From a virus, in the IMG/VR virus record IMGVR_UViG_3300028030_000011, positions 1 through 64,000 of that record: a DNA stretch of 64,000 bases. One strand, written 5' to 3'. The notes beneath the pieces were generated by a model. The model was not told the origin of the DNA, did not search any database, and saw nothing but the letters and a program-made list of their open reading frames with translations. The number at the start of each line of letters is the position of its first letter. Position 1 is the stretch's first letter. The position numbers and the translations under genes were made by a program. Shown piece by piece: positions 26,850 to 50,142 of this stretch.

Positions 26850-27032
26850 GTCCAGAGAGTTCTTCAAACTATATATACACTCATTTCAGGTTCAAAAGTA
26901 GTTTAGAGAGGTAAAGTTACCTCTCAAAGAACTCTCTGGACGAGAAATCAATGTATACAAAACAATAAGTTTACTCAATGGTATTCATCTCTGAATACCT
27001 AGAAAGTGGCTTGAACACCATTCAGTAAACTT
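26850..27032 (-). ncRNA. Two tandem structured leader elements (A1 orphan 26967-27032; A2 26850-26957)
   Basis: A2: stem 26874-26887/26944-26957; 15-bp perfect antisense 26927-26941 versus target 26850-26864. Confidence 0.7.
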
Positions 27033-27040
27033 TATAACAG

Positions 27041-27083
27041 TATATCACATCTATTTTAAGAACCACCTATAAGAGATGGTTCA
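27041..27083 (-). repeat. Cassette repeat R1 (terminator hairpin plus promoter), copy 1
   Basis: Minus strand TGAACCATCTCTTATAGGTGGTTC-TTAAAATAGATGTGATATA(C/A)T; also at 27888 and 28830. Confidence 0.95.
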
Positions 27084-27133
27084 GTTCTACCTTTTCCTGA
27101 CTGACTCGCCTGACTGTCGAGCCAATAATTTAA

Positions 27134-27736
27134 TTAGTTGTAATACTGCTTTAATAAATTTATTGCACTATCAAATTTTATATAAGGTGTTTGAAACTCA
27201 CCTCTAGTCTTCAATAAGCCATTGCAATCATTTTTCATGTGCCAATATCTAGTTGGTCTTATTGAATCTTCTATTGCTCCAAGTTTAACAAAGAACTCTT
27301 GTATTTGAGATTCTGTATAATCAGTTCTTTGTGCTATACCTCTTATAGAAGAATATCCATCAGAATCTATCATGCATAATTTCTTTTCTGATTTCAATAG
27401 TTTAATCTCTTCTTCTTTTGATGCTGTTAACATTTCATAAATAATATTATCACACCAAATTGCAAATTCTGGAGAAATCCATCTAGCAAATATAATCAAT
27501 AAACTATTATGGATTAATGTCTTTCCAACTATAGTTGTATTGATTAAGGTTCTTTTAACAGCGTTACATTTTTGTAACGCACTTAAATATTCCTTAACTC
27601 CTTTTGATTTTCTCCAATGAGTAAAATTTTTACCATGAGATTTAGCTATACCACTAACATCAATCATAAATTCTTTTTCATTGATTACCTCTATAGGCAA
27701 TACAGCTTCATTAAAAACTTTTACAAGTTCTTTCAT
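27134..27736 (-). CDS. Cassette B: KilA-N domain plus shared C-terminal domain (possible upstream in-frame TTG at 27796/27793)
   Basis: IDVSGIAKSHGKNFTHW..FARWISPEFAIWCD; DSDGYSSIRG. Confidence 0.85.
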   Translation of the reverse strand: MKELVKVFNEAVLPIEVINEKEFMIDVSGIAKSHGKNFTHWRKSKGVKEYLSALQKCNAVKRTLINTTIVGKTLIHNSLLIIFARWISPEFAIWCDNIIYEMLTASKEEEIKLLKSEKKLCMIDSDGYSSIRGIAQRTDYTESQIQEFFVKLGAIEDSIRPTRYWHMKNDCNGLLKTRGEFQTPYIKFDSAINLLKQYYN

Positions 27737-27778
27737 GATATTTTCTTTCCATAACAATAATTCTAAGTTTTGATTGAT

Positions 27779-27881
27779 GGTGTATGAAATCAACAATCAC
27801 AAATTAATAACTTAGAGGTATATGAAAATTGAGTAATTTCCATATACCAATTATTGGCTTCATACACCTCTAAGCTATTAA
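27779..27881 (-). ncRNA. Structured antisense leader element B
   Basis: Stem 27804-27819/27866-27881; antisense 27850-27868 versus target 27779-27797. Confidence 0.7.
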
Positions 27882-27887
27882 CAAAAT

Positions 27888-27930
27888 TATATCACATCTA
27901 TTTTAAGAACCACCTATAAGAGATGGTTCA
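27888..27930 (-). repeat. Cassette repeat R1, copy 2
   Basis: 43 bp identical to 27041-27083. Confidence 0.95.
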
Positions 27931-27935
27931 TTTAG

Positions 27936-28667
27936 CTATGCTAACAGATTTTCATCAACATACTTTATTGCAGCGTTAGAGAATCTCTCTCTCAATTCAT
28001 CGGCTTCTTCTGATGTTGGTTTGCCATCTTGAATATATTTATAAACTAAATCATTTATGAATTTTAAATCAAATGTAGGTAGTCCATAACTAGTTCTTGA
28101 AGCCATCACATATTTAGCAATCTCATTATCTGTATCTATATCTCTTGATATTGTAATTTTAGGCATAGTCTTAACATACCCATAATGAACTAGCATATCC
28201 CATGCTTCATGTTCTTTTACTACTTCTATACCTTGCTCTTTCAATTCTACTAAACAACCCTTCAAACTCATAAAACCATTGTCATATACTTTTGGCTTTT
28301 TAGCATCTCTTATTGCTTTTGCCTTTTCTTTAGAAAATTCAATCCTTAAAGCATCTTCTCTAATCTTTTGAATTTCATCTCTCATAGTAAAAAATTGATT
28401 TACAAGTTCCTCTTTGAATTTTTCAGTAATTTCATTGTTTGGTAACAATGTTAAAAGTAAGGTACAAGATTTTTCATCAAACTTCATTTCAGAATAATTT
28501 AAGTCTTCCGACAAATCGTATGGATAACTTAATCCATTCTTAATCAACATATTTATCTTTCGTTTAACTATTTTCTTAACAGCTTCATCTCCAAGTTTAG
28601 AAAATTTAATAATAGTAGATAATTCTACAACAGCATTAGTGTTTTCAATAGTAATAAGATTTTGCAT
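27936..28667 (-). CDS. Cassette C: Rha-like N-terminus (similar to gene 22409) plus shared C-terminal domain (possible upstream in-frame TTG at 28721)
   Basis: ATG 28667 with GAGGA RBS; FDEKSCTLLLTLLPNN..FKEELVNQF; AKKPKVYDNGFMSLKG. Confidence 0.75.
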   Translation of the reverse strand: MQNLITIENTNAVVELSTIIKFSKLGDEAVKKIVKRKINMLIKNGLSYPYDLSEDLNYSEMKFDEKSCTLLLTLLPNNEITEKFKEELVNQFFTMRDEIQKIREDALRIEFSKEKAKAIRDAKKPKVYDNGFMSLKGCLVELKEQGIEVVKEHEAWDMLVHYGYVKTMPKITISRDIDTDNEIAKYVMASRTSYGLPTFDLKFINDLVYKYIQDGKPTSEEADELRERFSNAAIKYVDENLLA

Positions 28668-28711
28668 CTTTATTCCTCTTAACAATGGTAATAAATTTAG
28701 AGTTTGGATTT

Positions 28712-28825
28712 GATGTACCAAATCAATCCATAAACCTATTTAATATAGTAAACTCAAAGATGAACCAATTACGAGTGTAATTAGAACATCAAGATGATTT
28801 GGTACATCTTTCAATTTACATACTA
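28712..28825 (-). ncRNA. Structured antisense leader element C
   Basis: Stem 28741-28762/28805-28825; perfect 14-bp antisense 28795-28808 versus target 28712-28725. Confidence 0.7.
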
Positions 28826-28829
28826 AAAT

Positions 28830-28872
28830 TATATCACATCTATTTTAAGAACCACCTATATAGGATGGTTCA
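28830..28872 (-). repeat. Cassette repeat R1, copy 3 (also the terminator of the vRNAP gene)
   Basis: Near-identical to the other R1 copies; 1 nt after the vRNAP stop. Confidence 0.95.
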
Positions 28873-28873
28873 T

Positions 28874-31800
28874 TTAAAGCATATCATTTATAATATGTAC
28901 TGGTGCAGGAATAATTAAATCCTCTATATTTCCAAATGGATTTCTCATCTTCTCATCAGGAGTCATTAGTAACCAATAATTCTCAAATGGTGTAGCTATA
29001 TCATATACCACTTTTTCAAATGCTTCTATAGCAAGTACAGTCTTAGGATTCTCTCTTAATAGCCTAGACATTACTTTTTGCATTCTAAGATAGTATTTAA
29101 TGAATGGAAACCAAGCTACTTGGTCAGCCCATCTAACAGCTTTACCAAGAGGTATATCATACTGAACAAAATCATCTAATGCTTCATCATATATCTGTTG
29201 ATATGATTTATTTGTATTGTTCTCTTTCTCTAACTCTATTTGAGCATATCTAGCTGTAAAATCACTAGCTTGTGTAAAGTGATACATGAGTTTAAAATAG
29301 TTAGTGTCTTCTGCTAAATACAATTCTCTACCTATTTTTACTACCTTTTCAGGTAATATTTCTTCAACTTTATCTATAGCATCTCTGATAGGTTTTAGAG
29401 ACTCAAAAGCTTTATTAATAGTTATGTCTTCTATTCTAGCTGACAATAATCCATCATCAATTAAACTTCTTATCTTATTCTGGTTCAATCTACTTTGCAA
29501 ATCTGTAATTAACTCTTCATCATAAAGTAACCCAGAATCTCTTTTAAGCTCTTCTTGCTTAAGTAAATCATCAGTTCTCATATAATCATTGAGATACAAA
29601 AGACCTTCTTTTTGTTTTGCGTATATATCTCTTAAAGAATATCCTTTTGATTTAGTGAGGAATAAGTTAGAAACAAAGTTGCTTAACAACGTAAGAGGAT
29701 ATTTGATAATTACAGTAGCTTTCCATAATCCCATTAATTCTTTCCAAAAATCTTCTGCAAATTTTGCAACTTTCTTCATTGTTGGTATGTCATTAAAAAT
29801 ACTAGATATAGAGCTATCACGAGAACCAAGAAATATATTTTTAGTATTACCATTAGCTGGTATATAGAATCTGCCTTTATATTTATCAACAATATAGTCT
29901 CTAGTATCTTGTGGCAACATATACCATATATCATCATATTCACTTACTTTATTCTCAAAGCCTTTACTAGCAAATGGAGCTGATATTTTTATCCACTCTT
30001 TATTGTCTGTTTTATCTACAAACTTATCAACTGTTTCATTATCTTCTAGTCCAAGTCTAACAATACTATCAATAACTCTAATATTTACTTCTTTTGCTTT
30101 TTGCTTTTCAAATCCTCTAGCTCTTTGGTTCGCATATATATCAGCAATATTGTATGAGTATTTTAGATATTTTTTCTTCTCTTCAAATGATAATGGGTCA
30201 TAATCATAGCGTGAACCATTTCTATTGAATACATACTCAGTATTATGAATTTTTACAAAATTAGGTCTAGCTCTACCATAAAGTTCAAAATACAATTTAT
30301 CTATATCTTGACTAACACTCTTTTCACCATATACTAATGCTCCTCTAGTATATGAATTCATTTCAGGAGTAAGAGAATATACATGAATATTACCCGGACT
30401 AAATGGATTCTTAATTATCTTAATTCTTTCTCCACCTAATTCTCTGACTCTTTTTATTTCATCTTTGTTACTGTCTAATATATTTACTACAGAATTAACT
30501 TTACTACTGTTTTGTATAGCAAGACCATCTTGAACTAAATCAGGGTTATCATGATAGAATTGCTCTAACATCTCTCTCTCATAGCTGTTTGTCATAATCA
30601 TTAAATCATGAAATGCATTCTTATCTTTTGTTACTTTAGATAAAAACTCTTTTTTGTAATTTTTTATTCCTAATAAAGATGCTAAAGCTGTCATCTCATT
30701 CTTTTTGCTAAAATCAAATCTAGTAGCAATAACATGTATATTTCTAAATTTAGTATTCTCATCATGAGTGAGTCTATATTTAACTAGCTTCTTAATGTGT
30801 GGAATAGATTTTTTAGGAACTAATTTTTCTAATCTTCTTATCTCTTCATTTGGATTCTCAATAAGAGATAATATTTGGTCTATTGAATACCCTACATCTA
30901 ATAAATTACCAACTTTAGATGAATTAAGTAAGTTACCTAACAATGACTTCTCATATTCATTTAGACCCATATATTGAATCTTTTCATTAATAAACTCATG
31001 TGTATTGGTTCGTAATTTTTCTCTTACAATATCAACTTCTTTAATTGAATTTCTAAGCTCTTGAACTTCAATGCTAGTATCTTTTGCTGTTTTAAATATA
31101 TTATCACCCAATACTTGCAATTCATCAACTATATTATTTAGGAAACCTTCTTTATCTATTCTCGCTTTAGACATAGAATCAATACCTTTTGAGATAATAT
31201 CACCAATTGCATAACCAAACTCTTTTTTAGAGAATGGAATATTATTCATAGCCATAATAGCTAAAACTTTAGCAATTGTTTTTGTGTCTCCAACTATAAA
31301 TTTAGATATATTTCTTTTTAAAGAATCACTATCTTTTGACATATATTCAATTATATGAAAAACAGAAGATTTATTATCCTTGATTAAATCACTTCTTATT
31401 TTCAATGTTTTACTATGATAGAAGAATGCTAATTTGTTAACATTTGGTTTAATATTTTCATTATATTTATCACCAGCAAATCTAAGAGCTTTATACACAC
31501 CATTAAATACTTTATTCTCATTTTCAATAGTTATTCCTACACTCTGTTTTACAAGTGTTTGTAATTTACTTTGCATATCTAAATCTATTCTTCCATTAGT
31601 GAGAAGCATAGTTAATTTCTTTAATGAAGATGTAACAATATTTACAAGATTACTCAAAATAGAACCATTACCTTTATTCAATATTGTATTCATGCCAGAT
31701 AGATTGTTCATAAAATTCTTATTTGTTAATCCATATGCTGCAAACTCTGATACATCTCCTTTACCACCAAATACATGTTTAGCCATTCTTTTAGCTAATT

Positions 31801-34800
31801 GTTCATCTTCTACTGTATATACACCATCTTTAGGAAGGAATAATTTATATATATCTTTACCATGCTGCTGTTTTAACTCTTTCATCATATCTGTTATTTG
31901 ATTAACAAATATATTTGCGTCTTTTAATGCACCATCAAAAATATTATGAACTAACTCATGCACATATACTTCTTGTGCTGACATGCTCATATTGTCACTA
32001 CCTTGGTTAGCAATAGCTATTTTAGCAACATTCGAACCACTTGCACTACCGTAACTCATACTATCTGTTTTACCTACTGCAACTACAATTGTTTCCATTA
32101 CAGGAGCTATAATACTACTTAAAACATTTGATAGTTTATTGCTGTATTCAGAGCTAATTACATCATTTGACCATTGTTTTATTTTCTCAAATGATTTAAT
32201 TATATTCTCTTTATTTACTTTAAATGTAAAATATGGTTTAAACTCTTCATTTGTATCAAGAGATTGTTTTGTGTTGTTAATCTCTTGTTTTGCTTTTTTA
32301 AGTTTCGTCAAATGACTATTCAATTTGGTCTTATCCAATTGAATAATCTCTATGCCACTATCCTTCATTATTTCATTAACAGCTCTAACTAAAGCATAGC
32401 CTGTTAGGCTTTCAAGTTTTCTAACAGGTATTTTATCAAATGCTTCTAATACATCTTCAAGCTCTATTTTTGATAATTCAGGATTAGAACCATTCTTCAT
32501 GAGATGCTCATAATTTAAATCATTAGCTGTCGTTTTAGTCTTAGGGGTGTAATTATTAATCTCATTATTAAGACCTGTCAATGATTCACTTTGACCTAAT
32601 TTTTCATTTGTCTCTTCTTTATATTTGTCATAAATTTTTTTATGCTCAGTAGTATCTATAGGTTTAAAATCATTTGATTCATTTTTGACATATCTTTCGT
32701 CTACTCCAACAGAATGCTCAATTGTAGTTACAATGTCCTTTAATATGCGTCTGTTTAACTGATTCAATTCAATATGAAAATCAATAGATATAGGGTCAAA
32801 ATATATGCTACCATTATCACCTACTTTTACAGTAGATAAAGTTCCTATCATCATTGAATCTATTTGCTTTTTCGATAATTTATCTTTATCTAATGATTCG
32901 TAGAATCTAAATAATCTATCTGTAGCATATTCAGTATATGGTATTATTTTATTATCTACTTTCATATCATGAACAGATTTAGGCAACATTGCATTTATAT
33001 TTTCTTTAGTCCACTCATAATTGTTAAATGCTATTTTTGCATTTTTAAGAACTTCAACAAATGGTGAATATCCACTATCAATAAGTTTATTAACACTTTT
33101 ATTATATTGTTTAGCTCCACCTTCTGCTGATAGAACAGCATCAAAAATATACAATCCTATATTTTCTTGTGAAGTATTTTTGATAGTGTCTGCAAGTACA
33201 CCAGAGTCAGTCATAAGAGTTGATAGAGCTGGTGTTCTTACTCCAATATCAATCCATGATGTAACTCCAATAGTTTGAGTAGACATCAAATGTCTATCCT
33301 TGCCTTTTGTAGCCACTTTGACTTGATAGTTTTTACCCTTTATAATATTGTTTATTTGGTCATTAAAACCTCTCTTCATTAACTCACCTTGTCTACCCTC
33401 AAAAGTGGTTAAAACAGGTGCTATCCCATCTTTAATGAGCTTATTTGTTATCTCATTGATTACTTGCTTAGAGATAAATCCATGTTCTTTATGATATGCG
33501 TCTAATCGTCTAAAGAACTCATCTAAAAAATATTTATTTTGAAGATTAGATACTCTTTGAGTAATCTCTGTACCTTGCTTAAAAGGAGCTAGAACTTTAT
33601 TTATAGAATCAGTAATCACTTTACCTAAAGTGTTTCTATAATTAGTTCTTAATGTAGCTAACTGTTTAGCAGTAAATTCAAAATCATTTAAATTATAATT
33701 ATATTTATTTGTATTTGTAGGATTCTCTAAACTATGTAACCTCTCATTGAGGTGGTTCATCAATTCTTGAATATTTTCATCATTAAATTGAGACTCTTGT
33801 ACTTTACCATTTATTGTAAGTTTAACCTCTTTCCCATTTGAATCTTTGTTAAAATTAACAATTGATTGAACCATCTGAACGACTAATTGTATCTCTTGCT
33901 TTGTTGATTTACCATTAGCAATATCTTCTATTTTAGTATAAAAATCATCTATCATTTCATCAAATTTACTGTCCTGAATAGACTTGTCACCAGCTGTATA
34001 TCCTTTAGCAATTATAGGTGTTTTAAAGAAGTTTCTAGCTTGTCTAAGAGCTTCTGACCCTTTAGATAATGTATCAGATACAACCCATGATTCTAGCATA
34101 GGCTTAAAAAAGTTATTGAATAGATTATATCTAGCTACTTTAGCATAGTATGCATTCTTTTCGTTAACTGTCTTTAATTCTTTCTTTGGTGGCTCAGGCT
34201 TACGATTATGCTCATAATCATTATCTTTATCCTGCAATCTATTGTGCATTTCAATACCTGATTCTTCATAGTTATCAAGACCTACATAGTCAGTATTTTT
34301 TGTTGTGTCAGTTTGGTTCGTATAGATACCACCTTTATGAAGCATTTCAACAGATTTGCTATCTAATGGATTGAAATAGAATATTGATTGTAAAGTCGAA
34401 CCACTCTGTTTTGCATCAGTCTCTTTTTCAAGTGTAGTTTCAAATATATCACCTTTTTTATTTACAAACTTTTTAAGTTCTACCAATCCTTGAAGAGTAT
34501 ATGCTCCTTCTCCATATTTTTGAACCAGTTCAATAGGAGGATATATAGACTTATCATTGAGATATGACATTAGTTCACTATCTAATAACAACTTACCAAA
34601 CTCTTCTAGTATTTCATCAGGCTTCATATTCTCAGATTTCATTCCAAATGAATCAAGAATAGCTGATTTCCATATTAGCATTCTACCTTCATCTTTAATA
34701 TCAACAGTTCTTTTAGAGTTGATATTATGAGTCAAAAATCTATGTAATTTATTTGACTGAGGGTTAATCAGTTCAGCTACCAAATGCATTCTCTCTTCAC

Positions 34801-37800
34801 TAGCTCTCTTATATTTGTAATACATAGGTGTATTACCTATTGTTTCTATTACCTCCATAAGAGTATCTATTGAATCATCTATTTGTAGATTCTTACCTTT
34901 AATAGAAGCATGTTTAGATGTATGTGAATATATTCCAGCAGTATTAGCAAATTTAAAATCATATCCCATAATAGTTCTAAGATAGTCTCTAAACTCTTTT
35001 TCTCCTAACTCTTGATATAAATCAATTATCTCTTGCTTTATCTGTCTGGGTGCTTGTTGTTGCTTATTTATAGCCTCATCTTTTACTATTTCGTGTGGAG
35101 TGGTTCTCTCTTCTGGTAAATGCATTCTGAACACTTTTTTAAGTACAGCCTTACCTTTACCTCTAATTGGAGATTTATCATTTGCACGAAGGAAATTTAC
35201 TCTTTTATTGCTATCTGTACTGTATGGTATAGCTCTATACGCATTAAACTCTTTCATTGTCATTGAGAACTGTTCTACATTAGCTAAATTAGATGTTCTA
35301 AGCAAATGAGTAGCAAGTAGTGCTATAGCACTACCAAATCTCTCTTTTGCTAATGGGTTATTAGATTGGAGAGAGATATATTCATTCATAAGATTTGACA
35401 TTGAAGAGATAATATTGGATTGTAATTTACCATATTTAAATCTACTTTTCATGGCTACAGTCACATCATGTTCAGAGTTTAAACCAAGAAGTGTAGCTAT
35501 ATCTTCATCAGTATTCTCATTGAACATCTCTCCACCTTGATTCATCATCCCATCAATGGCTACAAATGTAACAAGATTAACAAGAGTATTTTCATCTAAT
35601 CCATTTAACATTTCATTGTATTTATCAGAATCTTCTTTATTGAAATCCATGGCAAATATCTCACCTCTATCAGATATGTTTTGAACCAGTTCTCTAGCTT
35701 GTTTTATTAGGGGTCTAACAATATTGTTAAAATATTGAATCTCCTTATCTTTTGTAGAATAATCATTACCTTGTGTACCTTCAATACTTTGAGATATTAA
35801 ATCCCATGTCTCAAAGGCTTTCATTAAACCAAATTTCACCCCTTTAGGTAATTTCATTTTTTGTAATTTATTATAGAAGCCTTTATCTATTGTATTTATC
35901 TTGGCAATAAATCCATCTGTTAATTTACCTGTAGCTTTTAGCTTCTTCTTGTACTCTGACATCAAAACATTTATATTTTGTTTTCTTGATACTTCATTGG
36001 TTCTATATTGTTTAGATTTTACTTGTAATTCAATTAAAGCACTAAGCTCTTTATTTAAAGAATCAAGTTCTTTTTGAATCTGTTCTTTATTTTTGAAAAG
36101 TTTTGTAATCAGAGAGTTAATCTCTTTTACAAATTGTTTTATTTTTTCAACAATTACTTCTCTTAGTGATGGAAGAATTTCAGATTTCTTATCTTTATTT
36201 AATTTAGATTTTTTACCTTTTTTAAACTTTTTAGTATTCTCTATCCTTTTATTAATGGTTTCTAAATCTTTTTCTAATTTAGCTATTTTTTTCTTTTTAT
36301 CATTTATCTCTTTTTGTACCCCTTTATATCTCTTTTTCCATTTACCATCTTTAGTTTGGTATATTCCATCAAGTTTAGCTTGTAGCTCATCAATTTTTCT
36401 TTCAAGTCTACTAGCTCTTTTATCTTCTTTTACAGGTGTAAGCTCTTTCTTTTTAGTGTTAAAAGATTTCTTTAACTCATTAGCATATTGATTAGCTAAT
36501 TTTCTATTTTGTAAATCTTGTAAACCTTTAGCAAATGCATCTTTAGCTTCATCTATAGTAGATGCTTTCTCTATATTAGAGATATGTGAACCAACTACTT
36601 TTTTATCTTCTTTTATTTGCTTATCTTCTTTAGTATCTTGTTGAGATGGTTCATTAGTTATAGATGTTTCGCTTGGTATTCCACCCCTACTTTTTAAAAA
36701 GTTATTATAGCTCTCATTGACAGCTTTAGCTTCTCTCTCTATTCTATCGACTAATTTAACACTACCATTGTGATTAGCATCTACATACTCTTCTGTACCA
36801 AGACTATTTACTCCAAGAGAAACTCTTTTGCCTGTCGCTCTAGATTCTACAAGTGCTTGTTTGAATCTTATAGCCTTATCATTCATTTGACCAACAAATC
36901 TTTTGTATCCAGACTCTTCTATTTGTTTTGGTGTAGCATCAGATAGTCTTGACTCCCATTGGGAAATACCTACATTATTATTATCACCAGTAAATATCTC
37001 TTTAGAGACTTGATATTTATCTTTTACTTGATTATACTCTTTAGATTTATCAATTTGTTCCTGAACACTTTTATCTTCTGTTCTGATAGTATCAACATTA
37101 GGCATATCCATAAAAGCACTAATATTGGCACTTTCATTATCACTAATAGAGTTTTTAGTTATTGGATTATTATCTACTACACTTTTAAGAGATGCTTTAG
37201 CTGTTTGTATAGAATCAAGTACTTGTTTGATATTTAGGATATTGTCTATATCTTGTAGTGTATAGCCTTTATCTTTTAAAGATTTTGGAACTTTAGGATT
37301 CTCTTTATCGTATAAAGCATCATACTCTTCATCAGTTATAACATTTTGAATTTCATTTGAAATGTTATCAATCTCTTTAACAGCATCTTTACCAATCTTA
37401 TCATGAAACTCTTTTTCAAGATTATCTACTTCATTATACGAGTTAGATGCATCTTCAACAGTTTTAACTTCTTTGCCCATTACTTGATGATAATTAGGCA
37501 TCTTGCTTTGTACTGTATGATATGCTCTCTTCGTATCTATCTTCTTTGCAGTATCTTGTTTAGGTGGTTCATTTACTACTGTAGTCTCTTGTTGTGTAGA
37601 AGGCTCTGTTGTTGGTGTTTGTGGTTCAGGATACTCATTGGTTGCATTAGGTGTTACAGGCTCTGTATTAGATTGCTTTGTCTTAAAATTATCTCTAGCT
37701 CTTGTAAGTGTCTGTAGCAACTCTTCTTTTGATAATTTACTTAAAGACATTTTAGTAATTGTACCAGTATTTCTAATAATAGGACTATTGTCTATAATAG

Positions 37801-39754
37801 TTTGTATTTTGTCTCTATCATTGGTTTTATCAATTATACGGATTAGATTATCAAATTCAAGCTCTCCATCAATATCTTTAAATTTGACTTCTCGTTTGGC
37901 TACTCCACCATCAGGAGTAGGTTCATTTTGAGACATCGTTGTTTTCTTATTTATAGATGTCCTTAAATCAGACGATAATACATTTCCAAGTCTATTAAAC
38001 TCATCTTCTTTAGTTGGTTCAGGCTCTGTAGTGGCTTTTGAACCATCTGTAGAAGGAGTATCATTAGGAGATGGTTCATTATCTTTACCAAAGAACGGTG
38101 TTCCATCGTCATTAGTTGAAATAGACTCATAAAATCTAGCTCTCTCTTTAGCATCTGCTTCATCTTTAATAGCTTGTTGCTCTTTTTGGTACGCTCTATC
38201 CTCCCCTAATCTTCTAGTAGTATCAGGAAGTGAATGTACACTACTCATACCAGCACCAATACTTAGACCTGCTAAAGCACCTTTCAGTACAGTATCAATA
38301 GTCTTTTGGTCTTTAGGGAAGTTATTGCCAAATGCATCAGTACCAAGAGTTGTAGCCAATAACTCTCCATAAGTTTGAACAGCTTCTGTAGAACCCTCCC
38401 ATGCTCCACCTGTAGCTGCTCTTTTTGATAAATCAATGGCTGATGTAAGCATCTCAGTAGTTAATGCTCTTTGAGCTGTAGGAGATGAACCAGCTAGTAA
38501 CTTCTTAATATTATCAATATTAGATGCACCTGCTTTACCTTTTATTATACTTTGAAATGCAAGTCTATCTAATGCATTCTTAGCCAATAAGAAAGTAAAT
38601 GTATTTATAGCACTACCAGATGTTTCTCCATCAAGATTATTCTTAGCTCTTTCTTCTAATGCTGTATTCGTCTCTCCAAGAGTATATGATAATAGACCAC
38701 CATTCTTTAACGCTAAACCTTTAGCACCTTCAAGCATAGCTTTTGTCTTTTCTATTCCTTGAAGTAATTCAGAACCACCATTCACCAATCCTTTAGATGC
38801 ATTAAGCAATGCTCCAGATTCACCTACAGGAGTCATCATTAAAGCCATATCTCCAGCACTCTCAGAGAATAATGCATCAGCTTGTTTAAACGCTTCCCAT
38901 GCTGCTTTAGCATATTTCATTTTATGAGAGTTCTTTGAGTTCCAACCAATCTTTAAATTATGTAATCCCTCATCAAGTGCTATATTTGATTCGGTATCAT
39001 CATAGCTATTTAGTCTATTTGAATACTCTTTATCTTTTAGCTTATTGAAGTATGTGCTGTCTCCAAGATATAATGCATCTCCTTTTTTACTCCCTAGTGC
39101 AGTATCAATTAATGCTGATGTAGTATCTAATGCAAAATCTCCAATTGATGAACTAGCTCTACCAAGTGATGCGTAAGCACCTTTTAGGTCATTCCATGGT
39201 CTTCCGAGAAAACCTAACCCATCATCTGTAGCATCATTGTTATACTCTTTTAAAGCTTCTAGCTCTTTAGCTCTATCATCTTCACCAAGAGCATATAATT
39301 TTTCTATCTCCTTATTGGCTAATTCTTGACGTTTTCTATCGTATTTATTTGAAGATACAGCTTTACCACTAGCAATAGACAAATCAGCTAATTCAGGTAT
39401 ATCAACAAGTAATCTACCATACTTATCTCTTTTTCCTGTATAGTTATTGTATATATCTTTTGCTGTTATTTTGCCAGTATTAATCATCATCTCTAACATA
39501 CTACTACCAGTAGTATTGTCAGGTGTTATACCAGATTCATTTTCTAATTCTTGTGCTTTTTTTGAATCAATTGTTTCTAATGAATCATAACCCTTGAATC
39601 TAAAAATTCTACCTGTTATATTATCCTTTACAGTATCACCATCAATGACTTCTAATGTATTGTCTTTTACGCCAAGAGACTCATCAATTCTGTCATCAGT
39701 AGATGAACCAAGTTTTTGTAACATTTCATCAAATTTATCTAAAGATTGTGGCAT
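28874..39754 (-). CDS. N4-like virion-encapsidated RNA polymerase (3626 aa) with N-terminal thermonuclease-like domain and HExxH motif
   Basis: ERMHL..NPQSNKLHR, motif A ETDAKQSG, motif B RNFFKTPIIAKGYTAG, motif C YIFDA; size; no Cys seen on reading; HELVH. Confidence 0.85.
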   Translation of the reverse strand: MPQSLDKFDEMLQKLGSSTDDRIDESLGVKDNTLEVIDGDTVKDNITGRIFRFKGYDSLETIDSKKAQELENESGITPDNTTGSSMLEMMINTGKITAKDIYNNYTGKRDKYGRLLVDIPELADLSIASGKAVSSNKYDRKRQELANKEIEKLYALGEDDRAKELEALKEYNNDATDDGLGFLGRPWNDLKGAYASLGRASSSIGDFALDTTSALIDTALGSKKGDALYLGDSTYFNKLKDKEYSNRLNSYDDTESNIALDEGLHNLKIGWNSKNSHKMKYAKAAWEAFKQADALFSESAGDMALMMTPVGESGALLNASKGLVNGGSELLQGIEKTKAMLEGAKGLALKNGGLLSYTLGETNTALEERAKNNLDGETSGSAINTFTFLLAKNALDRLAFQSIIKGKAGASNIDNIKKLLAGSSPTAQRALTTEMLTSAIDLSKRAATGGAWEGSTEAVQTYGELLATTLGTDAFGNNFPKDQKTIDTVLKGALAGLSIGAGMSSVHSLPDTTRRLGEDRAYQKEQQAIKDEADAKERARFYESISTNDDGTPFFGKDNEPSPNDTPSTDGSKATTEPEPTKEDEFNRLGNVLSSDLRTSINKKTTMSQNEPTPDGGVAKREVKFKDIDGELEFDNLIRIIDKTNDRDKIQTIIDNSPIIRNTGTITKMSLSKLSKEELLQTLTRARDNFKTKQSNTEPVTPNATNEYPEPQTPTTEPSTQQETTVVNEPPKQDTAKKIDTKRAYHTVQSKMPNYHQVMGKEVKTVEDASNSYNEVDNLEKEFHDKIGKDAVKEIDNISNEIQNVITDEEYDALYDKENPKVPKSLKDKGYTLQDIDNILNIKQVLDSIQTAKASLKSVVDNNPITKNSISDNESANISAFMDMPNVDTIRTEDKSVQEQIDKSKEYNQVKDKYQVSKEIFTGDNNNVGISQWESRLSDATPKQIEESGYKRFVGQMNDKAIRFKQALVESRATGKRVSLGVNSLGTEEYVDANHNGSVKLVDRIEREAKAVNESYNNFLKSRGGIPSETSITNEPSQQDTKEDKQIKEDKKVVGSHISNIEKASTIDEAKDAFAKGLQDLQNRKLANQYANELKKSFNTKKKELTPVKEDKRASRLERKIDELQAKLDGIYQTKDGKWKKRYKGVQKEINDKKKKIAKLEKDLETINKRIENTKKFKKGKKSKLNKDKKSEILPSLREVIVEKIKQFVKEINSLITKLFKNKEQIQKELDSLNKELSALIELQVKSKQYRTNEVSRKQNINVLMSEYKKKLKATGKLTDGFIAKINTIDKGFYNKLQKMKLPKGVKFGLMKAFETWDLISQSIEGTQGNDYSTKDKEIQYFNNIVRPLIKQARELVQNISDRGEIFAMDFNKEDSDKYNEMLNGLDENTLVNLVTFVAIDGMMNQGGEMFNENTDEDIATLLGLNSEHDVTVAMKSRFKYGKLQSNIISSMSNLMNEYISLQSNNPLAKERFGSAIALLATHLLRTSNLANVEQFSMTMKEFNAYRAIPYSTDSNKRVNFLRANDKSPIRGKGKAVLKKVFRMHLPEERTTPHEIVKDEAINKQQQAPRQIKQEIIDLYQELGEKEFRDYLRTIMGYDFKFANTAGIYSHTSKHASIKGKNLQIDDSIDTLMEVIETIGNTPMYYKYKRASEERMHLVAELINPQSNKLHRFLTHNINSKRTVDIKDEGRMLIWKSAILDSFGMKSENMKPDEILEEFGKLLLDSELMSYLNDKSIYPPIELVQKYGEGAYTLQGLVELKKFVNKKGDIFETTLEKETDAKQSGSTLQSIFYFNPLDSKSVEMLHKGGIYTNQTDTTKNTDYVGLDNYEESGIEMHNRLQDKDNDYEHNRKPEPPKKELKTVNEKNAYYAKVARYNLFNNFFKPMLESWVVSDTLSKGSEALRQARNFFKTPIIAKGYTAGDKSIQDSKFDEMIDDFYTKIEDIANGKSTKQEIQLVVQMVQSIVNFNKDSNGKEVKLTINGKVQESQFNDENIQELMNHLNERLHSLENPTNTNKYNYNLNDFEFTAKQLATLRTNYRNTLGKVITDSINKVLAPFKQGTEITQRVSNLQNKYFLDEFFRRLDAYHKEHGFISKQVINEITNKLIKDGIAPVLTTFEGRQGELMKRGFNDQINNIIKGKNYQVKVATKGKDRHLMSTQTIGVTSWIDIGVRTPALSTLMTDSGVLADTIKNTSQENIGLYIFDAVLSAEGGAKQYNKSVNKLIDSGYSPFVEVLKNAKIAFNNYEWTKENINAMLPKSVHDMKVDNKIIPYTEYATDRLFRFYESLDKDKLSKKQIDSMMIGTLSTVKVGDNGSIYFDPISIDFHIELNQLNRRILKDIVTTIEHSVGVDERYVKNESNDFKPIDTTEHKKIYDKYKEETNEKLGQSESLTGLNNEINNYTPKTKTTANDLNYEHLMKNGSNPELSKIELEDVLEAFDKIPVRKLESLTGYALVRAVNEIMKDSGIEIIQLDKTKLNSHLTKLKKAKQEINNTKQSLDTNEEFKPYFTFKVNKENIIKSFEKIKQWSNDVISSEYSNKLSNVLSSIIAPVMETIVVAVGKTDSMSYGSASGSNVAKIAIANQGSDNMSMSAQEVYVHELVHNIFDGALKDANIFVNQITDMMKELKQQHGKDIYKLFLPKDGVYTVEDEQLAKRMAKHVFGGKGDVSEFAAYGLTNKNFMNNLSGMNTILNKGNGSILSNLVNIVTSSLKKLTMLLTNGRIDLDMQSKLQTLVKQSVGITIENENKVFNGVYKALRFAGDKYNENIKPNVNKLAFFYHSKTLKIRSDLIKDNKSSVFHIIEYMSKDSDSLKRNISKFIVGDTKTIAKVLAIMAMNNIPFSKKEFGYAIGDIISKGIDSMSKARIDKEGFLNNIVDELQVLGDNIFKTAKDTSIEVQELRNSIKEVDIVREKLRTNTHEFINEKIQYMGLNEYEKSLLGNLLNSSKVGNLLDVGYSIDQILSLIENPNEEIRRLEKLVPKKSIPHIKKLVKYRLTHDENTKFRNIHVIATRFDFSKKNEMTALASLLGIKNYKKEFLSKVTKDKNAFHDLMIMTNSYEREMLEQFYHDNPDLVQDGLAIQNSSKVNSVVNILDSNKDEIKRVRELGGERIKIIKNPFSPGNIHVYSLTPEMNSYTRGALVYGEKSVSQDIDKLYFELYGRARPNFVKIHNTEYVFNRNGSRYDYDPLSFEEKKKYLKYSYNIADIYANQRARGFEKQKAKEVNIRVIDSIVRLGLEDNETVDKFVDKTDNKEWIKISAPFASKGFENKVSEYDDIWYMLPQDTRDYIVDKYKGRFYIPANGNTKNIFLGSRDSSISSIFNDIPTMKKVAKFAEDFWKELMGLWKATVIIKYPLTLLSNFVSNLFLTKSKGYSLRDIYAKQKEGLLYLNDYMRTDDLLKQEELKRDSGLLYDEELITDLQSRLNQNKIRSLIDDGLLSARIEDITINKAFESLKPIRDAIDKVEEILPEKVVKIGRELYLAEDTNYFKLMYHFTQASDFTARYAQIELEKENNTNKSYQQIYDEALDDFVQYDIPLGKAVRWADQVAWFPFIKYYLRMQKVMSRLLRENPKTVLAIEAFEKVVYDIATPFENYWLLMTPDEKMRNPFGNIEDLIIPAPVHIINDML

Positions 39755-41870: not shown

Positions 41871-41884
41871 TAAGGATATAACTA

Positions 41885-42925: not shown

Positions 42926-42927
42926 TC

Positions 42928-45378: not shown

Positions 45379-45395
45379 GAAAAGGAGCAAACAAA

Positions 45396-45836
45396 ATGAC
45401 ATACGAAGAATATATGATGCTAAATAAGAATATTAATAGTTCTATGCCTCAAACTTTTGGAGATGCTTTAACTAATAGCGATTTAAAACAAAATCCTGTA
45501 GCACTATATGGTGGAACACAAAACAATGGTAGTTGGTTCAAAGGTATGTTCAAAGATTGGAATATGCAAAATACTATGGATACAGCAAACCTAGCACTTG
45601 GTGGGTTTAATTCATGGATGGCTTATAAAAACTATAGAGAACAACGAAAGAATAATGCTTTCAATAGAAAACTTGGTAGAGCAAACTATAAGAACCAAGC
45701 TAAATCATATAACTTACAAGTTGAAGATAGAGCTAGATACAGACAAGCATTCAGAGGAAACAATAGTGATGCTATTAATTCATATTTGCAAAATAATCAA
45801 GAATATAGAAGACGTTTAGTTGATGAAACATTTTAG
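45396..45836 (+). CDS. N4 gp52-like small virion protein
   Basis: ALGGFNSWMAY..NYKNQAKSYNLQVEDRAR. Confidence 0.6.
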   Translation: MTYEEYMMLNKNINSSMPQTFGDALTNSDLKQNPVALYGGTQNNGSWFKGMFKDWNMQNTMDTANLALGGFNSWMAYKNYREQRKNNAFNRKLGRANYKNQAKSYNLQVEDRARYRQAFRGNNSDAINSYLQNNQEYRRRLVDETF

Positions 45837-45842
45837 AAAGAA

Positions 45843-46229
45843 TTGATAATGTTAAGAAAAATAACAAAGCAAGAATATCTATTCTTCTACAAAAAGAAAC
45901 AAAGTAAAAGTGATTTAGATTTAAGTGATTATATTGACATATTAAAGTATTCTGATTCATACTACGCACTTAACAACAATGCTTTCGTAGGTGTTGAGTA
46001 TCTTAAAAATGGAGTTGTGAGAATAAACGGTTTATTCTCTCTTGAACCAAGCAGAGGACGTGATTTACTAAATACAATGATTGAAAACTTGGAGTCACTT
46101 GGCAAGACTGCTATAGTACTAGATTGTACTAAAGAGTTAAAAGATAAGTATTATACTAAGCATTGGGGGTTCTATAATGCATGGTATTTATCATCTATTA
46201 ACTATTATGAGTTAGTATTATTCTTGTAA
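45843..46229 (+). CDS. GNAT-like acetyltransferase
   Basis: RINGLFSLEPSRGRDLL..IVLDC..YYTKHWGF. Confidence 0.55.
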   Translation: MIMLRKITKQEYLFFYKKKQSKSDLDLSDYIDILKYSDSYYALNNNAFVGVEYLKNGVVRINGLFSLEPSRGRDLLNTMIENLESLGKTAIVLDCTKELKDKYYTKHWGFYNAWYLSSINYYELVLFL

Positions 46230-46252
46230 AACTTATATAAAAAAGGAATAAC

Positions 46253-48100
46253 ATGATTACAAGTAAAAAATATTTCAATCCAGATGGTTGTGAAATTCTC
46301 AATGAGAGAATATTTGCATCAACCCAAAATAATACAGGCTTTGTAGATTTCAATAGAAGCAAGTATCAATGGGATAGTGATGTGTATGACCTAATGAATG
46401 CCAATACATGGTTTAACTAAAAATAGACCAGTTTAAACACATTGAATTGCTGGGAAGCCTAAGTTGGTTCAAAGTGAAGTTAATCTATAATAAGAGAAAT
46501 ATTACAAGGAATCAATATGGTAATCAGCAGGGAAGCAGAGTATAACGAAACAAATGAAGTTTTTAAACAGATAGGTACTACGATTTATTCTGTTAGTACA
46601 CATGGAAGGGTAAGGAACGACAAAAGAATGAAATTTTTAACTCCAAGAAATCTTAGAGGATATGCAAGAGTTTCATTGTGGTTCGATGGGAAAGCAAACG
46701 ACAAAAGAATACATAGATTAGTCGCAGAAGCTTTCTTACCTAATCCTGATTGTAAACCAGAAGTAAATCATAAAAATGGTATCAGAAATGATAATCGTTT
46801 ATGTAATCTTGAATGGGTAACACCACAAGAAAATGTAAAACATAAAATGGAAGTTTTGAAACAAGAATCACAACAAGGCGAAAAAAACGCTAATTCAAAA
46901 CTTTCAGAAAGTGATATTATTTCTATACGAAACTCTAAAAAAGATGCTAAATTATTAGCAAAAGAATATGGAGTATCGTTAACACATATCTATCGGATAA
47001 AAGCCAAAAAAATGTGGAGTCATATCTGAACCTTCAACGACTATCGAAACGGTACTACTATAAGAGATTATAGTAGAAGAACGGAGTAGAGTACACCTAA
47101 GTAGGTGGAAGTGGTGTGGCATATAGAGAAGACTTAATTGAGTTCTTTATGTGTATGATATAGTCTAGCCTATATAGAAATATATAGAAGTTCATAAGAG
47201 AACTGCATAGGATTAACGACCCTATGTGAATATAAGCGTCCATCTGAGGTTAATACATCTAATGAAAAAAAGCAATTTAGTCAACTAACAGAAAATGAAC
47301 AAGCTATTTATAAAATGACATTTGCTCAACTTAGCTTTAATGATTCTGCTCAGGAAGAATACCTTAGTGACTTTAGGCGACTAGCAAATAACCGTTTACT
47401 GAAAGCTGTTATGTCTTTACAGATTACCCAAGAGGTAAACCACTCAAAGAGTTACGCTGTGCTACTTGATGCTTGTGGCAATTCGGAAGAGGTCTTTAAT
47501 CTTTATAAATATGATGATATGCTAAATAGAAAGAATCAACGAATCTCGGAACAATTTGCCAGATATATAAATGGTAATTCTGTTGATAAGATGTTGCTTT
47601 CAGCCATGGCTTCTGTTAATCTTGAAGGTATTTATTTCTTGCTTGGATTTGGATATATCTATACTCTTGGGGAGAAAGTTCAAGGAGCTAGAGATATGAT
47701 AAAATTTATTGCTAGAGATGAACTAAACACGCATCTGCCACTCTTTGCCAATATTTTCAAGACTATACAAAAAGAGAACAAAATTAAAACAAGCACAATA
47801 GATTCAGTTCATAAAATGATAGAAGAAGCTGTTGAAATAGAATTAGAATATGGAGAGTATTTATTAGATACATATCCTATTATGGGTATAACTAAAGAAT
47901 TGATGAGAGATACAGTCTATAATTATGCTAATGATAGACTTGATAAGATAGGACTAAAACCTATATTCAAAGAGAGTCATACTACACATATTCAAAAATT
48001 AGTAACTAAACATTTAAATATAAATGATGTAAAGAGTAACTTCTTTGAATCAAATGTAGCTGGATATGCTAAATCAAGTATTGAATTAGATGACTTTTAA
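46253..48100 (+). CDS. nrdB: Class Ia ribonucleotide reductase beta subunit, spliced: exon 1 46253-46413, exon 2 47239-48100 (340 aa)
   Basis: Joining TGG TT|T CCA restores NTWFPSEV; FNDSAQ, EVNHSKSY, LEGIYF, RDE, NFFE..V..Y motifs. Confidence 0.9.
46414..47238 (+). mobile_element. Group I intron in nrdB
   Basis: P1: exon TGGTT pairs with IGS GACCA (U.G at splice site); P AATTGCTGGGAA, Q AATCAGCAG, R TCAACGACTA, S ATGATATAGTC; ends in G. Confidence 0.9.
46517..47029 (+). CDS. Intron-encoded NUMOD4/HNH homing endonuclease
   Basis: YSVSTHGRVRN, IHRLVAEAFL, VNHKNG.RNDNRLCNLEWVT..EN, C-terminal HTH. Confidence 0.9.
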   Translation: MVISREAEYNETNEVFKQIGTTIYSVSTHGRVRNDKRMKFLTPRNLRGYARVSLWFDGKANDKRIHRLVAEAFLPNPDCKPEVNHKNGIRNDNRLCNLEWVTPQENVKHKMEVLKQESQQGEKNANSKLSESDIISIRNSKKDAKLLAKEYGVSLTHIYRIKAKKMWSHI

Positions 48101-48270
48101 GATATTACAATGTATAATGTATTGAGCCAGTGTACAACTTCTCCCCAGTTAATGCGTTGGCTCATAGATGATATTTTCCTTGTGTGTGTGTTTCATTTTT
48201 TTTCCCACCAAAGAATAAGAACTCCTTTCGATTTTGAAATTTATTTTGAACCACCTAAATGAGTGGTTCA
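48096..48270 (+). ncRNA. Candidate sRNA of about 145 nt with its own promoter and terminator
   Basis: TTTAAG..TGTATAAT promoter; TGAGCCA/TGGCTCA hairpin with TCTCCCC loop; terminator TGAACCAC/GTGGTTCA 48247-48270. Confidence 0.45.
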
Positions 48271-48271
48271 T

Positions 48272-48304
48272 GTAGAGTTAGTGTTTAGCTAACTCCATTT
48301 GATT
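48272..48304 (-). repeat. Cassette repeat R2, partial copy (hairpin GAGTTAG-TGTTTAG-CTAACTC)
   Basis: Matches 49238-49271 and 50106-50139. Confidence 0.85.
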
Positions 48305-48311
48305 GGTTATG

Positions 48312-49076
48312 CTATTTATCAGATAGATACTCTTCTAGTTGTCTTCTCATCTTAGTTTTAAAGTCTTGATTTACACATGGACTTCCTACTTTATTATATT
48401 GATTTATTATGGCTCTAACAGCATCTGGAATATAAGTATAATCTCTAGTAGCTTTTACACCATCTTTTTTAAATGTTTTAGACTTGTAGACTAAACCCAT
48501 ATAGTCATCATTCATTGTTGGTCTAGTTGTTATTTTAATGTCTACAGTCATAACCTCTTTCCACACCAAAGCATCTTTTATATAATCATAAGACTCTTGA
48601 AATCCATAATGTTGAATAAGACCTGTAATAGATGTTGTGCCATCATCATGCAATCTAACTTTATTTGCATCAGCTTCTATTTGAGCTATTTGCTGTTGAG
48701 CTTCTTCTAAGATTAGCATTTCATTTTTTTTAGATTCAAGTCGTATTTCATTTTTAATCCATCTATCACAAGCTACAGCAAAATCAGAAGAAATCCATCT
48801 TGCAAAATGGATTATTAAATCTGGATGAATATATGTTCCACCATACTTTCCTTGAATAGCTTGTTTTAACTCCGTAGATTTTACGGAGTTAAAATTACAT
48901 ACAGACTTCATATATTCTTGTGTATCTTGACTTTTCCAATAATTAGATAAATCTTTACCAAAAGTTTTAGAAACCTCTGTAGCATTTAACCATGCTCCAT
49001 TTTCTAATGCAAATTTAATATTTACATCAACTAAGTCTAATGTAGTGTTTGAGAAATTTTTTAATTGAATTTCCAT
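48312..49076 (-). CDS. Cassette D: KilA-N domain plus shared C-terminal domain
   Basis: WLNATEVSKTFGK..GGTYIHPDL..FARWISSDFAVACD; HDDGTTSITG. Confidence 0.9.
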   Translation of the reverse strand: MEIQLKNFSNTTLDLVDVNIKFALENGAWLNATEVSKTFGKDLSNYWKSQDTQEYMKSVCNFNSVKSTELKQAIQGKYGGTYIHPDLIIHFARWISSDFAVACDRWIKNEIRLESKKNEMLILEEAQQQIAQIEADANKVRLHDDGTTSITGLIQHYGFQESYDYIKDALVWKEVMTVDIKITTRPTMNDDYMGLVYKSKTFKKDGVKATRDYTYIPDAVRAIINQYNKVGSPCVNQDFKTKMRRQLEEYLSDK

Positions 49077-49117
49077 TTAACAGTATTACTTTCATTAATT
49101 TTAAGTGAAGGATTTGG

Positions 49118-49205
49118 AGAGGTTATCAAGCTTTCTAATCCTATTATACACTTAGAGGTTAGCATCTCTACTAACCGACTAGAAGGCTTGATAACCTCTA
49201 AATGT
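49118..49205 (-). ncRNA. Structured antisense leader element D
   Basis: Stem 49148-49161/49192-49205; antisense 49177-49199 versus target 49118-49140 (21/23 identity as inverted repeat). Confidence 0.7.
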
Positions 49206-49209
49206 CTTT

Positions 49210-49271
49210 AAAATTATATCATATAAATCTTTAATGAGTAGAGTTAGTGTTTAGCTAACTCTTGTTTGATT
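49210..49271 (-). repeat. Cassette repeat R2 (terminator hairpin plus promoter), copy 1
   Basis: 62 bp, one mismatch to 50078-50139; minus strand ends TAAAGATTTATATGATATAAT. Confidence 0.95.
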
Positions 49272-49935
49272 GTCTTACATAATCAATTACAGCTTGTTTA
49301 ACGACTTGTGGATAGTATGTAGGTGCTTGTGTGCCTCTATCAGTACCTATATAGCTTGGAGTACCTTCTGGTAATCTTCTATACTTTGTAACTTTAGTAA
49401 TATCTTCATTCCACCCCTTAAATGTTAAAGCTTCCCAAACAAAGTCTTCTGATACATCTAATCCAGTATGTTGAATAACTCCTCTAACACTCATCGTACC
49501 ATCATCATAAATTTTACATTTCTTAGCATTAGCTACTGCTAACTGTTTTTCTTTCTCTGCTTGTTCTAATAGAGCTTCTGTTTTAATCTGATTTACTTTA
49601 ATCATTTCTGATTTAATAAATCTATCACACTCAATAGCAAATTTAGGAGAACACCATCTTGCAAAATGAACCACGAGTTCTGGGTGTAAATATGTTCCTT
49701 GTTGTTTTCCTTTACCTGTAACAACAATTTTAAGGTCACTGATTTTCAGTGAGCATAATTCTGCTAATTCAATCATATATTCTTCAGTATCTTTTGATGT
49801 GAAATAGTTATCAATACGCTTACCAAACTCTTTAGCTGTTGTTGTAGCATTAATCCATAAACCATTCTGTAATGCGAACATTACTTCTTTACTTGATATA
49901 GCTTCATTACTAAAGCTGTGTAATTCTAAATCCAT
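49255..49935 (-). CDS. Cassette E: KilA-N domain plus shared C-terminal domain
   Basis: WINATTTAKEFGK..QGTYLHPEL..FARWCSPKFAIECD; YDDGTMSVRG; stop lies inside R2. Confidence 0.9.
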   Translation of the reverse strand: MDLELHSFSNEAISSKEVMFALQNGLWINATTTAKEFGKRIDNYFTSKDTEEYMIELAELCSLKISDLKIVVTGKGKQQGTYLHPELVVHFARWCSPKFAIECDRFIKSEMIKVNQIKTEALLEQAEKEKQLAVANAKKCKIYDDGTMSVRGVIQHTGLDVSEDFVWEALTFKGWNEDITKVTKYRRLPEGTPSYIGTDRGTQAPTYYPQVVKQAVIDYVRQSNKS

Positions 49936-49979
49936 AATAGATTCCTAAACATAGACAAATTTTAAAGGTTGATGATTGT

Positions 49980-50073
49980 GAGTCCAATACGACCATCTAA
50001 ATAAATACCTTAGAGGAATACCCTTACCAAGTAGTAAAGAAATTCCAAGTCGGATTGGACTCCTCTAAAGTAT
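49980..50073 (-). ncRNA. Structured antisense leader element E
   Basis: Stem 50005-50017/50061-50073; antisense 50049-50062 versus target 49980-49993 (13/14). Confidence 0.7.
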
Positions 50074-50077
50074 TAAT

Positions 50078-50139: not shown

Positions 50140-50142
50140 ATG

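Follow-up and report, generated by a model that had tools for sequence, protein, structure and literature searches.

A family of structured leader RNAs with private complementary pairs in an N4-like phage of deep-sea vent bacteria

We describe a family of structured leader RNAs, hitherto not represented in Rfam, in an uncultured N4-like phage of lytic type from deep-sea hydrothermal vents, known from the 76,293-nt IMG/VR record IMGVR_UViG_3300028030_000011 (29.8% G+C; hereinafter G000), the first 64 kb of which constitute the window analyzed here. The family unites a covarying scaffold helix, private complementary pairs that are orthogonal to each other and a two-state layout; the one scaffold is used eight times in this genome, with each copy that has a target bearing its own complementary pair. 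With a probability of about one half, we interpret these leaders as self-contained switches that act in cis to set the fate of the mRNA that they head. To our knowledge, this is a group of phages without known non-coding RNAs, and the leaders thus add to the N4-like phages an RNA motif family with clear covariation, opening it to compensatory-mutation tests.

Each element opens with a helix, P1, which closes an inner hairpin, P2, often with an ACUU, ACUC or GAGA loop. Each leader with a guide displays a private guide of 11-23 nt and, 4-20 nt beyond the hairpin, a target complementary to it. The preliminary description of this DNA had proposed seven such elements, and all seven were recovered at the same coordinates and with the same guide sequences. 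They fold well below shuffled controls (z scores of −4.0 to −6.9) and rank among the longest pairs in a window-wide inverted-repeat scan. A descriptor scan of the whole genome added an eighth, leader I (genome 70622-70527, − strand), which lies beyond the window behind a promoter-like site of the form TTGACT-17-TGgTAAAAT and is followed by a small open reading frame (ORF). About eight more elements are found in three related vent-phage contigs; the records IMGVR_UViG_3300028030_000019, IMGVR_UViG_3300028490_000032 and IMGVR_UViG_3300019863_000024 are referred to below as G001, G002 and G004, respectively. The elements of the window are:

12863-12959, + strand: element H, with P1 arms at 12863-12874 and 12916-12927, guide at 12872-12891 and target at 12940-12959.
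26850-26941, − strand: element A2, with guide at 26927-26941, a TTGAGAGG/CCTCTCTAA hairpin with an ACUU loop, and target at 26850-26864.
26967-27032, − strand: element A1, an orphan 5′ domain composed of P1 and a GAGA-loop hairpin.
27779-27882, − strand: element B, with P1 arms at 27858-27882 and 27803-27827 (25 bp), guide at 27850-27868 and target at 27779-27797.
28712-28819, − strand: element C, with P1 arms at 28799-28819 and 28748-28768, guide at 28795-28808 and target at 28712-28725.
49118-49205, − strand: element D, with P1 arms at 49189-49205 and 49148-49164, guide at 49177-49199 and target at 49118-49140.
49980-50077, − strand: element E, with P1 arms at 50059-50077 and 50001-50019, guide at 50049-50062 and target at 49980-49993.

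The layout, described earlier as common to all elements, is departed from in A2, whose guide precedes the TTGAGAGG hairpin on its 5′ side and is not part of it.

The scaffold helix P1 has a conserved shape and, in part, a conserved sequence (UUAGAGG/CCUCUAA). That it forms as RNA, on the sense strand, follows from its covariation and from its pairs, which over ten elements comprise 169 Watson-Crick and 19 G·U pairs with not a single A·C. When 13 elements are aligned with the UUAGAGG core as the anchor, about 20 consecutive columns pair, several of them with compensatory types, such as G-C, A-U, U-A and U·G at a single column. In a flush seven-row MAFFT alignment, 95.7% of the P1 cells pair as against 72.9 ± 3.0 upon shuffling, and both sides have changed in 11 of the 17 pairs as against 5.3 ± 1.5, with neither value being matched in any of 500 shuffles; sliding the partner by 1-3 columns lowers the pairing to 34-43%. 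Compensatory change is seen even within a single type of leader: the UUAGAGG/CCUCUAA arms of the E type are replaced by UUAGUGG/CUACUAA in G001 and UUAAUGG/CCAUUAA in G004. The earlier proposal of a leader-RNA family built on one scaffold is strongly supported by these alignments. The support for covariation pertains to P1: RNAalifold predicted no pairs on MAFFT alignments, which were out of register, and the flush seven-row alignment allowed P1 only to be counted. P1 starts 4-9 nt past the −10 box and would begin at about the expected start of the transcript (~+1).

The second helix, between guide and target, differs from copy to copy. Its runs comprise 9-19 contiguous pairs, or 11-23 if one internal mismatch is allowed, whereas in a null set of 112 unrelated IMG/VR sites with chance TTTAGAGG...CCTCTAAG arms the best runs between guide and target are most often of 7 pairs and at no site of more than 11. 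As had been proposed, the pairs are private and diverse, and they are also mutually orthogonal: the cognate duplexes have energies of −20 to −32 kcal/mol, as opposed to a mean of −7.9 kcal/mol for the 110 non-cognate combinations, and cross-reaction is confined to the three E-type leaders (−14 to −18 kcal/mol). No guide has another Watson-Crick site of at least 12 nt in the 218 kb of five phage contigs, and the single match across genomes, 11 nt in length, is between the orphan A1 guide of G000 and the A1 target of G001. The helices span 11-23 bp, reaching at least 19 bp only in A2, B, D and H; an RNase III processing site calls for roughly two turns of near-perfect duplex. The preliminary description had further taken G·U-compatible mismatches as a pointer to pairing at the RNA level, but this did not stand up to counting, as the guide:target helices combine 162 Watson-Crick pairs with 6 G·U, 5 A·C and 1 C·U.

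A few features of individual pairs are recorded here in their own right. Duplexes longer than 15 bp each feature one mid-helix mismatch (B, D and H, and G1b and G1c in L064), which in five of six cases is a C in the guide opposite an A in the target and never the reverse. The linker of the G002 leader (L067:8225-8290, − strand) contains a second guide-like copy, GAGUCCGAUU, also able to pair with the target, and it is this copy rather than the guide that does so in the minimum-energy fold. In sequencing run X3, a variant contig has CCAAC in place of CCGAC in the guide and GUUGG instead of GUCG in the target, both of which come from a single contig at a depth of 6 and were read from a loose end. 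Run X2 yielded a 159-nt contig of an E-type leader at a depth of ~1008, which is uninformative on copy number.

The two helices are interlocked. In all ten elements compared, the first 3-11 nt of the guide are also the innermost pairs of P1, and since the guide:target helix needs these same nucleotides and crosses P1, full formation of one precludes that of the other. When the 5′ domain is folded by itself, the 5′ half of the guide is paired (probability of being unpaired 0-0.24), while most elements leave the 3′ half exposed (0.46-0.76), K1 (0.24) and the degenerate K4 (0.04) being the exceptions; thus, the guide, earlier described as unpaired, is so in its 3′ half only, its 5′ 3-11 nt being inside P1. 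Guide and target are paired in the minimum-energy fold of 8 of the 11 leaders, with P1 being kept in the remaining three (B, G1c and G2), and the energy gap between the two folds amounts to 6-19 kcal/mol. The layout, as modeled, fits a switch of the toehold and branch-migration type with two mutually exclusive helices, and it is because they cannot coexist that the label of a switch, already attached to these elements in the preliminary description, is apt. Indeed, like attenuators and related switches, the leaders have two exclusive helices that share nucleotides and are both conserved, P1 through covariation and guide:target through cognate specificity. A fold that hides a terminator, a ribosome-binding site or another signal was not found among the signals tested.

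The same phage also has three further long intergenic hairpins, at 3925-4079 (+ strand), 4805-4912 (+ strand) and genome 69005-69105 (− strand; L185:5005-5105), with an outer stem of 19-55 bp around a G+C-rich inner hairpin and z scores of −6.7 to −11. Their wobble bias favors the + strand at 3925-4079 (6 G·U) and the − strand at 4805-4912 (3 A·C on the + strand, equivalent to G·U on the − strand).

In each of the 11 leaders, 37-72 nt separate the end of the target from the start codon, and in no case does the target reach into the ribosome-binding site. Every target is followed by a tail of 30-60 nt extending to the Shine-Dalgarno sequence, which contains a UUAYYAUUGUY motif and is C-rich and G-poor: the tails together have 99 C against 25 G in 467 nt, compared with 12% C and 17.6% G on the sense strand of the genome. 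A scan with a terminator consensus, which terminators of AT-rich hosts may not fit, found none after P1 on the sense strand and none downstream of the target; two to four U directly follow P1 in some copies only. We also considered a short P3 stem flanking the target that might present it in a loop; though persuasive on inspection, it was no better than with shuffled flanks (combined p = 0.12).

Comparison with the relatives indicates how the leaders have evolved. Protein-based scans of viral, metagenome and genome collections returned only G001, G003 and, later, G004, and DNA pattern scans added one more family-bearing contig, G002, their remaining matches being due to chance. The family was not found beyond these same contigs in 185,579 species genomes, GenBank phages and a metagenome scan; the contigs of seven further KilA-N relatives (P0001, P0002, P0004-P0007, P0009-P0010) lay outside the family survey. 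In G000 a leader of the E type heads gene E, in G001 it heads the gene C orthologue, and in G002 it heads a gene of the Rha-like type. The G001 orthologue of gene E (protein 84% identical) follows a leader whose guide and target are quite unlike those of the E type. A 77-nt block of A1 is 100% identical between G000 and G001; in G001 its target follows, whereas in G000 the whole A2 module replaces the stretch carrying that target, and the A1 guide has none. Hence, of the earlier claim that the target co-varies with the guide in six elements, the complementary targets are real, but that of A1 is absent from this genome and has to be sought in G001. A second orphan, K4 of G004, is a degenerate 5′ domain with another promoter after it. 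These sequence comparisons show the modules to be mosaic, with 5′ domain, linker and target travelling as one unit.

The association of the elements with Rha and KilA-N genes, which had been presented as general, is a tendency rather than a rule: two Rha-like and three KilA-N genes lie downstream of them, but H is found before a helicase gene, I before a small ORF, and some modules are orphans. Likewise, the TGnTATA(A/C)T boxes noted earlier are indeed there, but their frequency in the window is not above chance, and they are called promoter-like below on the strength of their position. The boxes, tail and genes that accompany the elements of the window are:

12805-12813, + strand: promoter-like box of leader H, an extended −10 (TGTTATAAT).
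13020-14825: helicase gene downstream of H.
26170-26781, − strand: Rha-like gene downstream of A2.
26782-26849, − strand: C-rich, G-poor tail of leader A, from target to Shine-Dalgarno, with the TTATCATTGTC motif.
27039-27047, − strand: promoter-like box TGATATACT of leader A (A1 and A2).
27134-27736, − strand: KilA-N gene downstream of B.
27886-27894, − strand: promoter-like box TGATATAAT of leader B.
27936-28667, − strand: Rha-like gene downstream of C.
28828-28836, − strand: promoter-like box TGATATAAT of leader C.
48312-49076, − strand: KilA-N gene downstream of D.
49213-49221, − strand: promoter-like box TGATATAAT of leader D.
49255-49935, − strand: KilA-N gene downstream of E.
50081-50089, − strand: promoter-like box TGATATAAT of leader E.

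One C-terminal region (KKPKVYxNGxMSVRG...), to which no Pfam or PHROG model corresponds, is common to the five Rha-like and KilA-N proteins, and they differ solely in their N-terminal DNA-binding domains. A conserved hairpin beside the promoter box marks the upstream border of each cassette (27048-27090, 27895-27935 and 28837-28880, − strand; 49222-49265, 50090-50133 and 48275-48295). In array A these hairpins take the form GAACCAYC...GGTGGTTC and in array B AGAGTTAG...CTAACTCT; those of array B score as terminators for the + strand only, that is, antisense to the KilA-N genes.

How might such leaders work? The interpretation to which we give even odds posits that each is a self-contained module of 100-130 nt transcribed from a host-type extended −10 promoter, so that the transcript would open at ~+1 with the long hairpin in which P1 closes P2. 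In one state, the 5′-terminal hairpin would be closed and the target free; in the other, the long guide:target helix would have formed, freeing the 5′ end and the 3′ arm of P1, with the exposed half of the guide serving as the toehold for strand displacement. As all four translational models tested failed, we place the output at the level of mRNA fate and infer that it may lie in mRNA decay or Rho termination. The hairpin at +1 could shield the 5′ end from decay until the long helix forms and is cut by RNase III; alternatively, Rho might load on the free target and tail. The result would be tight control of DNA-binding genes of the KilA-N and Rha type, which are plausibly harmful if overexpressed, while the private sequences would keep co-resident copies from mispairing. 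Action in cis is favored by the lack of a terminator in the scan after P1, by the distance of the target from the ribosome-binding site and by the joint movement of domain, linker and target.

Several observations nevertheless weigh against this cis switch. Pairing in cis is sterically or thermodynamically disfavored in K5, B, G1c and G2, which fits action in trans as well, and the same phage has long hairpins with no alternative P1. The wobble bias of P1 has no counterpart in the guide:target helices. Two simple outputs were also rejected: masking of the ribosome-binding site by way of the target, in that the energy of opening the site is the same whether the target is free or sequestered (mean difference −0.08 kcal/mol), and release of an anti-Shine-Dalgarno, in that the 3′ arm of P1 pairs with the initiation region no better than shuffled sequences do. 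Finally, no RNA run is among the sequencing runs listed as containing the phage, and it is from the DNA that we infer both the transcription start and the switching.

The alternative that fares best, which we hold possible though unlikely, is a trans-acting riboregulator like C4 or IsrK. Here, transcripts would be terminated or processed past P1, leaving the 5′ hairpin domain to build up as a small RNA, and the guide displayed on it would pair with the target carried by full-length transcripts of its own type, perhaps including those of co-infecting related phages, resulting in cross-regulation or immunity. As in antisense RNAs, the guide is displayed in the bulge or loop of a stable hairpin. 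Moreover, pairing in cis looks hard where, as in K5, a linker of only 4 nt follows a 23-bp stem, or where P1 survives in the fold of minimum energy, as it does in B, G1c and G2. The orphan 5′ domains point in the same direction, as the sole match of A1 of G000 is the target in G001, and K4 lies before another promoter. There are also precedents upstream of antirepressor genes, namely c4 (PMC12197685) and the short form of IsrK, which acts on its own read-through mRNA (PMC4825925). Against this, no Rfam match to C4 or IsrK emerges at E values up to 10, the target, 37-72 nt upstream of the start, leaves the ribosome-binding site uncovered, and the leader ORF that the logic of C4-icd or IsrK-orf45 requires is inconsistent. 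Nor did the consensus scan reveal a convincing terminator behind P1, and the perfect identity of A1 in the two phages is accounted for by recent mosaic exchange.

A bolder and rather improbable version of the same idea is that the pairs form a library of orthogonal toehold-type RNA “addresses” borne by this phage and its relatives, the hairpin domains of which act in trans between co-infecting members of one population, such that orphan guides (A1 of G000 and K4 of G004) silence or activate the leader of a competitor. Were this true, it would amount to an RNA-based interference or immunity system of multiple specificities in a lytic N4-like phage.

It is also improbable, to a somewhat greater degree, that the guide:target helix is merely the lower stem of a static processing or stability hairpin, either cut by RNase III, as in the early mRNA of T7, or protecting the mRNA, with the differences in sequence being the outcome of paralogue drift with compensation. 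In its favor, 8 of the 11 leaders adopt the long helix at minimum energy, the duplexes exceeding 15 bp have one mid-helix mismatch, and the three additional intergenic hairpins with an inner hairpin occur in the same phage. However, P1, with which the long helix is incompatible, is the part best supported by covariation and G·U bias, the 3-11 nt overlap is present in every element, and the orphan domains lack the long helix altogether.

We consider it very unlikely that the inverted repeats are features of the DNA, be it half-sites of operators recognized by the DNA-binding products of the downstream genes, or sites of cruciform formation or recombination. In favor of such a role one might cite the lack of RNA wobble bias in the guide:target mismatches, the presence of DNA binders downstream, the bounding of cassettes by repeats and the recombination of the leaders. 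But the leaders and genes have been reshuffled relative to each other between phages, so that a protein does not keep “its” repeat; H and I do not precede such genes; the elements always have a single orientation, just past a promoter-like box; and the P1 interlocked with the repeats is clearly an RNA helix (19 G·U, 0 A·C). Least credible of all is a leader peptide that starts at a UUG or CUG in the target, is coupled translationally to the gene in the manner of icd or orf45 and is blocked by the guide: such a codon opens a frame of 17-25 codons up to the gene start in only 7 of 11 targets, it has no Shine-Dalgarno before it, every frame is interrupted by stops in H, G1c and I, and in several leaders two of the three frames are open, for which reason open frames are not specific.

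The identification of the source as an N4-like phage, made in the preliminary description, is borne out by a 3626-aa ORF (28874-39754, − strand), the size of which fits the virion RNA polymerase (vRNAP) of the N4 type, and by a capsid protein 46% identical to those of many N4-like phages. DNA of this phage is present in hydrothermal-vent metagenomes from three studies, and the vent genus Sulfurimonas has been connected with a viral operational taxonomic unit (vOTU) placed in the N4-like family Schitoviridae (PMC11531552). Around cassette array B, homing-endonuclease-like genes of the HNH/NUMOD type (50143-50916, − strand, and 46517-47029, + strand) flank the array and are adjoined by a gene for the small chain of ribonucleotide reductase (47315-48100). 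The right end of the record (genome 76091-76275; L185:12091-12275) carries iterated GGAAATAGG repeats and palindromes.

In terms of known RNAs, the leaders have both engineered and natural counterparts. Synthetic toehold switches have an exposed toehold beside a paired segment that a complementary strand can invade, and exist in many orthogonal versions on one scaffold. They are engineered, and their opening exposes a ribosome-binding site, whereas here no ribosome site is involved and both trigger and switch are on one transcript. If the two-state reading is true, the leaders would be a natural family of orthogonal strand-displacement switches, useful as parts, and a model for the diversification of RNA specificity. 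The RNase III hairpins of the T7 early mRNA are likewise an intergenic family of one shape and differing sequences, often with an internal mismatch or bubble; they are not known to have a conserved competing helix or a position at +1 behind their own promoter, of which the leaders have the first and probably the second.

The antirepressor-type genes of temperate phages (Ant, KilA and Rha) are a classic setting for control at the RNA level, as exemplified by sar, c4 and IsrK. C4, an RNA of ~77 nt excised by RNase P, pairs through two words, a′ and b′, with a2 and b2, and there are decoy sites, a1 and b1, further upstream. As in immI (c4-icd-ant) of phages P1 and P7 (RF01695, c4-a1b1), regulator and target are here co-transcribed upstream of antirepressor-type genes, and complementary sequences are displayed in loops. 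In lieu of two words with decoys, the leaders have one contiguous guide of 11-23 nt with no second site of at least 12 nt in the five contigs, and in none of the 11 does the target, 37-72 nt from the start codon, sit on the ribosome-binding site of the next ORF, as it does at icd. The comparison with the C4, c4-2 and c4-a1b1 models called for earlier gave no match: Rfam 15 yielded no hit passing the gathering score, either within the window or across 111 kb of related contigs, and at E values up to 10 (26700-29000 and 48900-50300) only microRNA-like hairpin noise appeared, with nothing of the C4 type or IsrK. The analogy to C4-type immunity RNAs thus does not extend to membership, given the lack of a covariance-model match and a target away from the ribosome-binding site. 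At the level of specificity there is both a likeness and a difference: the heteroimmunity of P1 and P7 arises from shifts in c4 specificity by paired changes in regulator and target, and the complementary segments of C4 are short and lie around the ribosome-binding site (PMC12197685).

IsrK-orf45-anrP of the Salmonella prophage Gifsy-1 offers a second parallel, in that a leader RNA precedes an antirepressor gene, its 5′ segment pairs further down the same transcript, two folds alternate, and the leader sequence is able to compete with itself (PMC4825925). The differences are that IsrK operates by translational coupling and by way of a small ORF's ribosome-binding site, that a defined terminator yields its short form, where our consensus scan found none after P1, and that its Rfam family is unmatched here; furthermore, no private orthogonal set within one genome has been described for IsrK. 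We accordingly assign the leaders to neither family, since both lack a model match and C4 also has two words with decoys and a target on the ribosome-binding site that are not seen here. By analogy, the leaders would work somewhat like c4-icd-ant and IsrK-anrP while standing outside both families, as a structurally unrelated solution to the control of antirepressor-type genes, found in an N4-like phage of lytic type from the bacteria of deep-sea vents.

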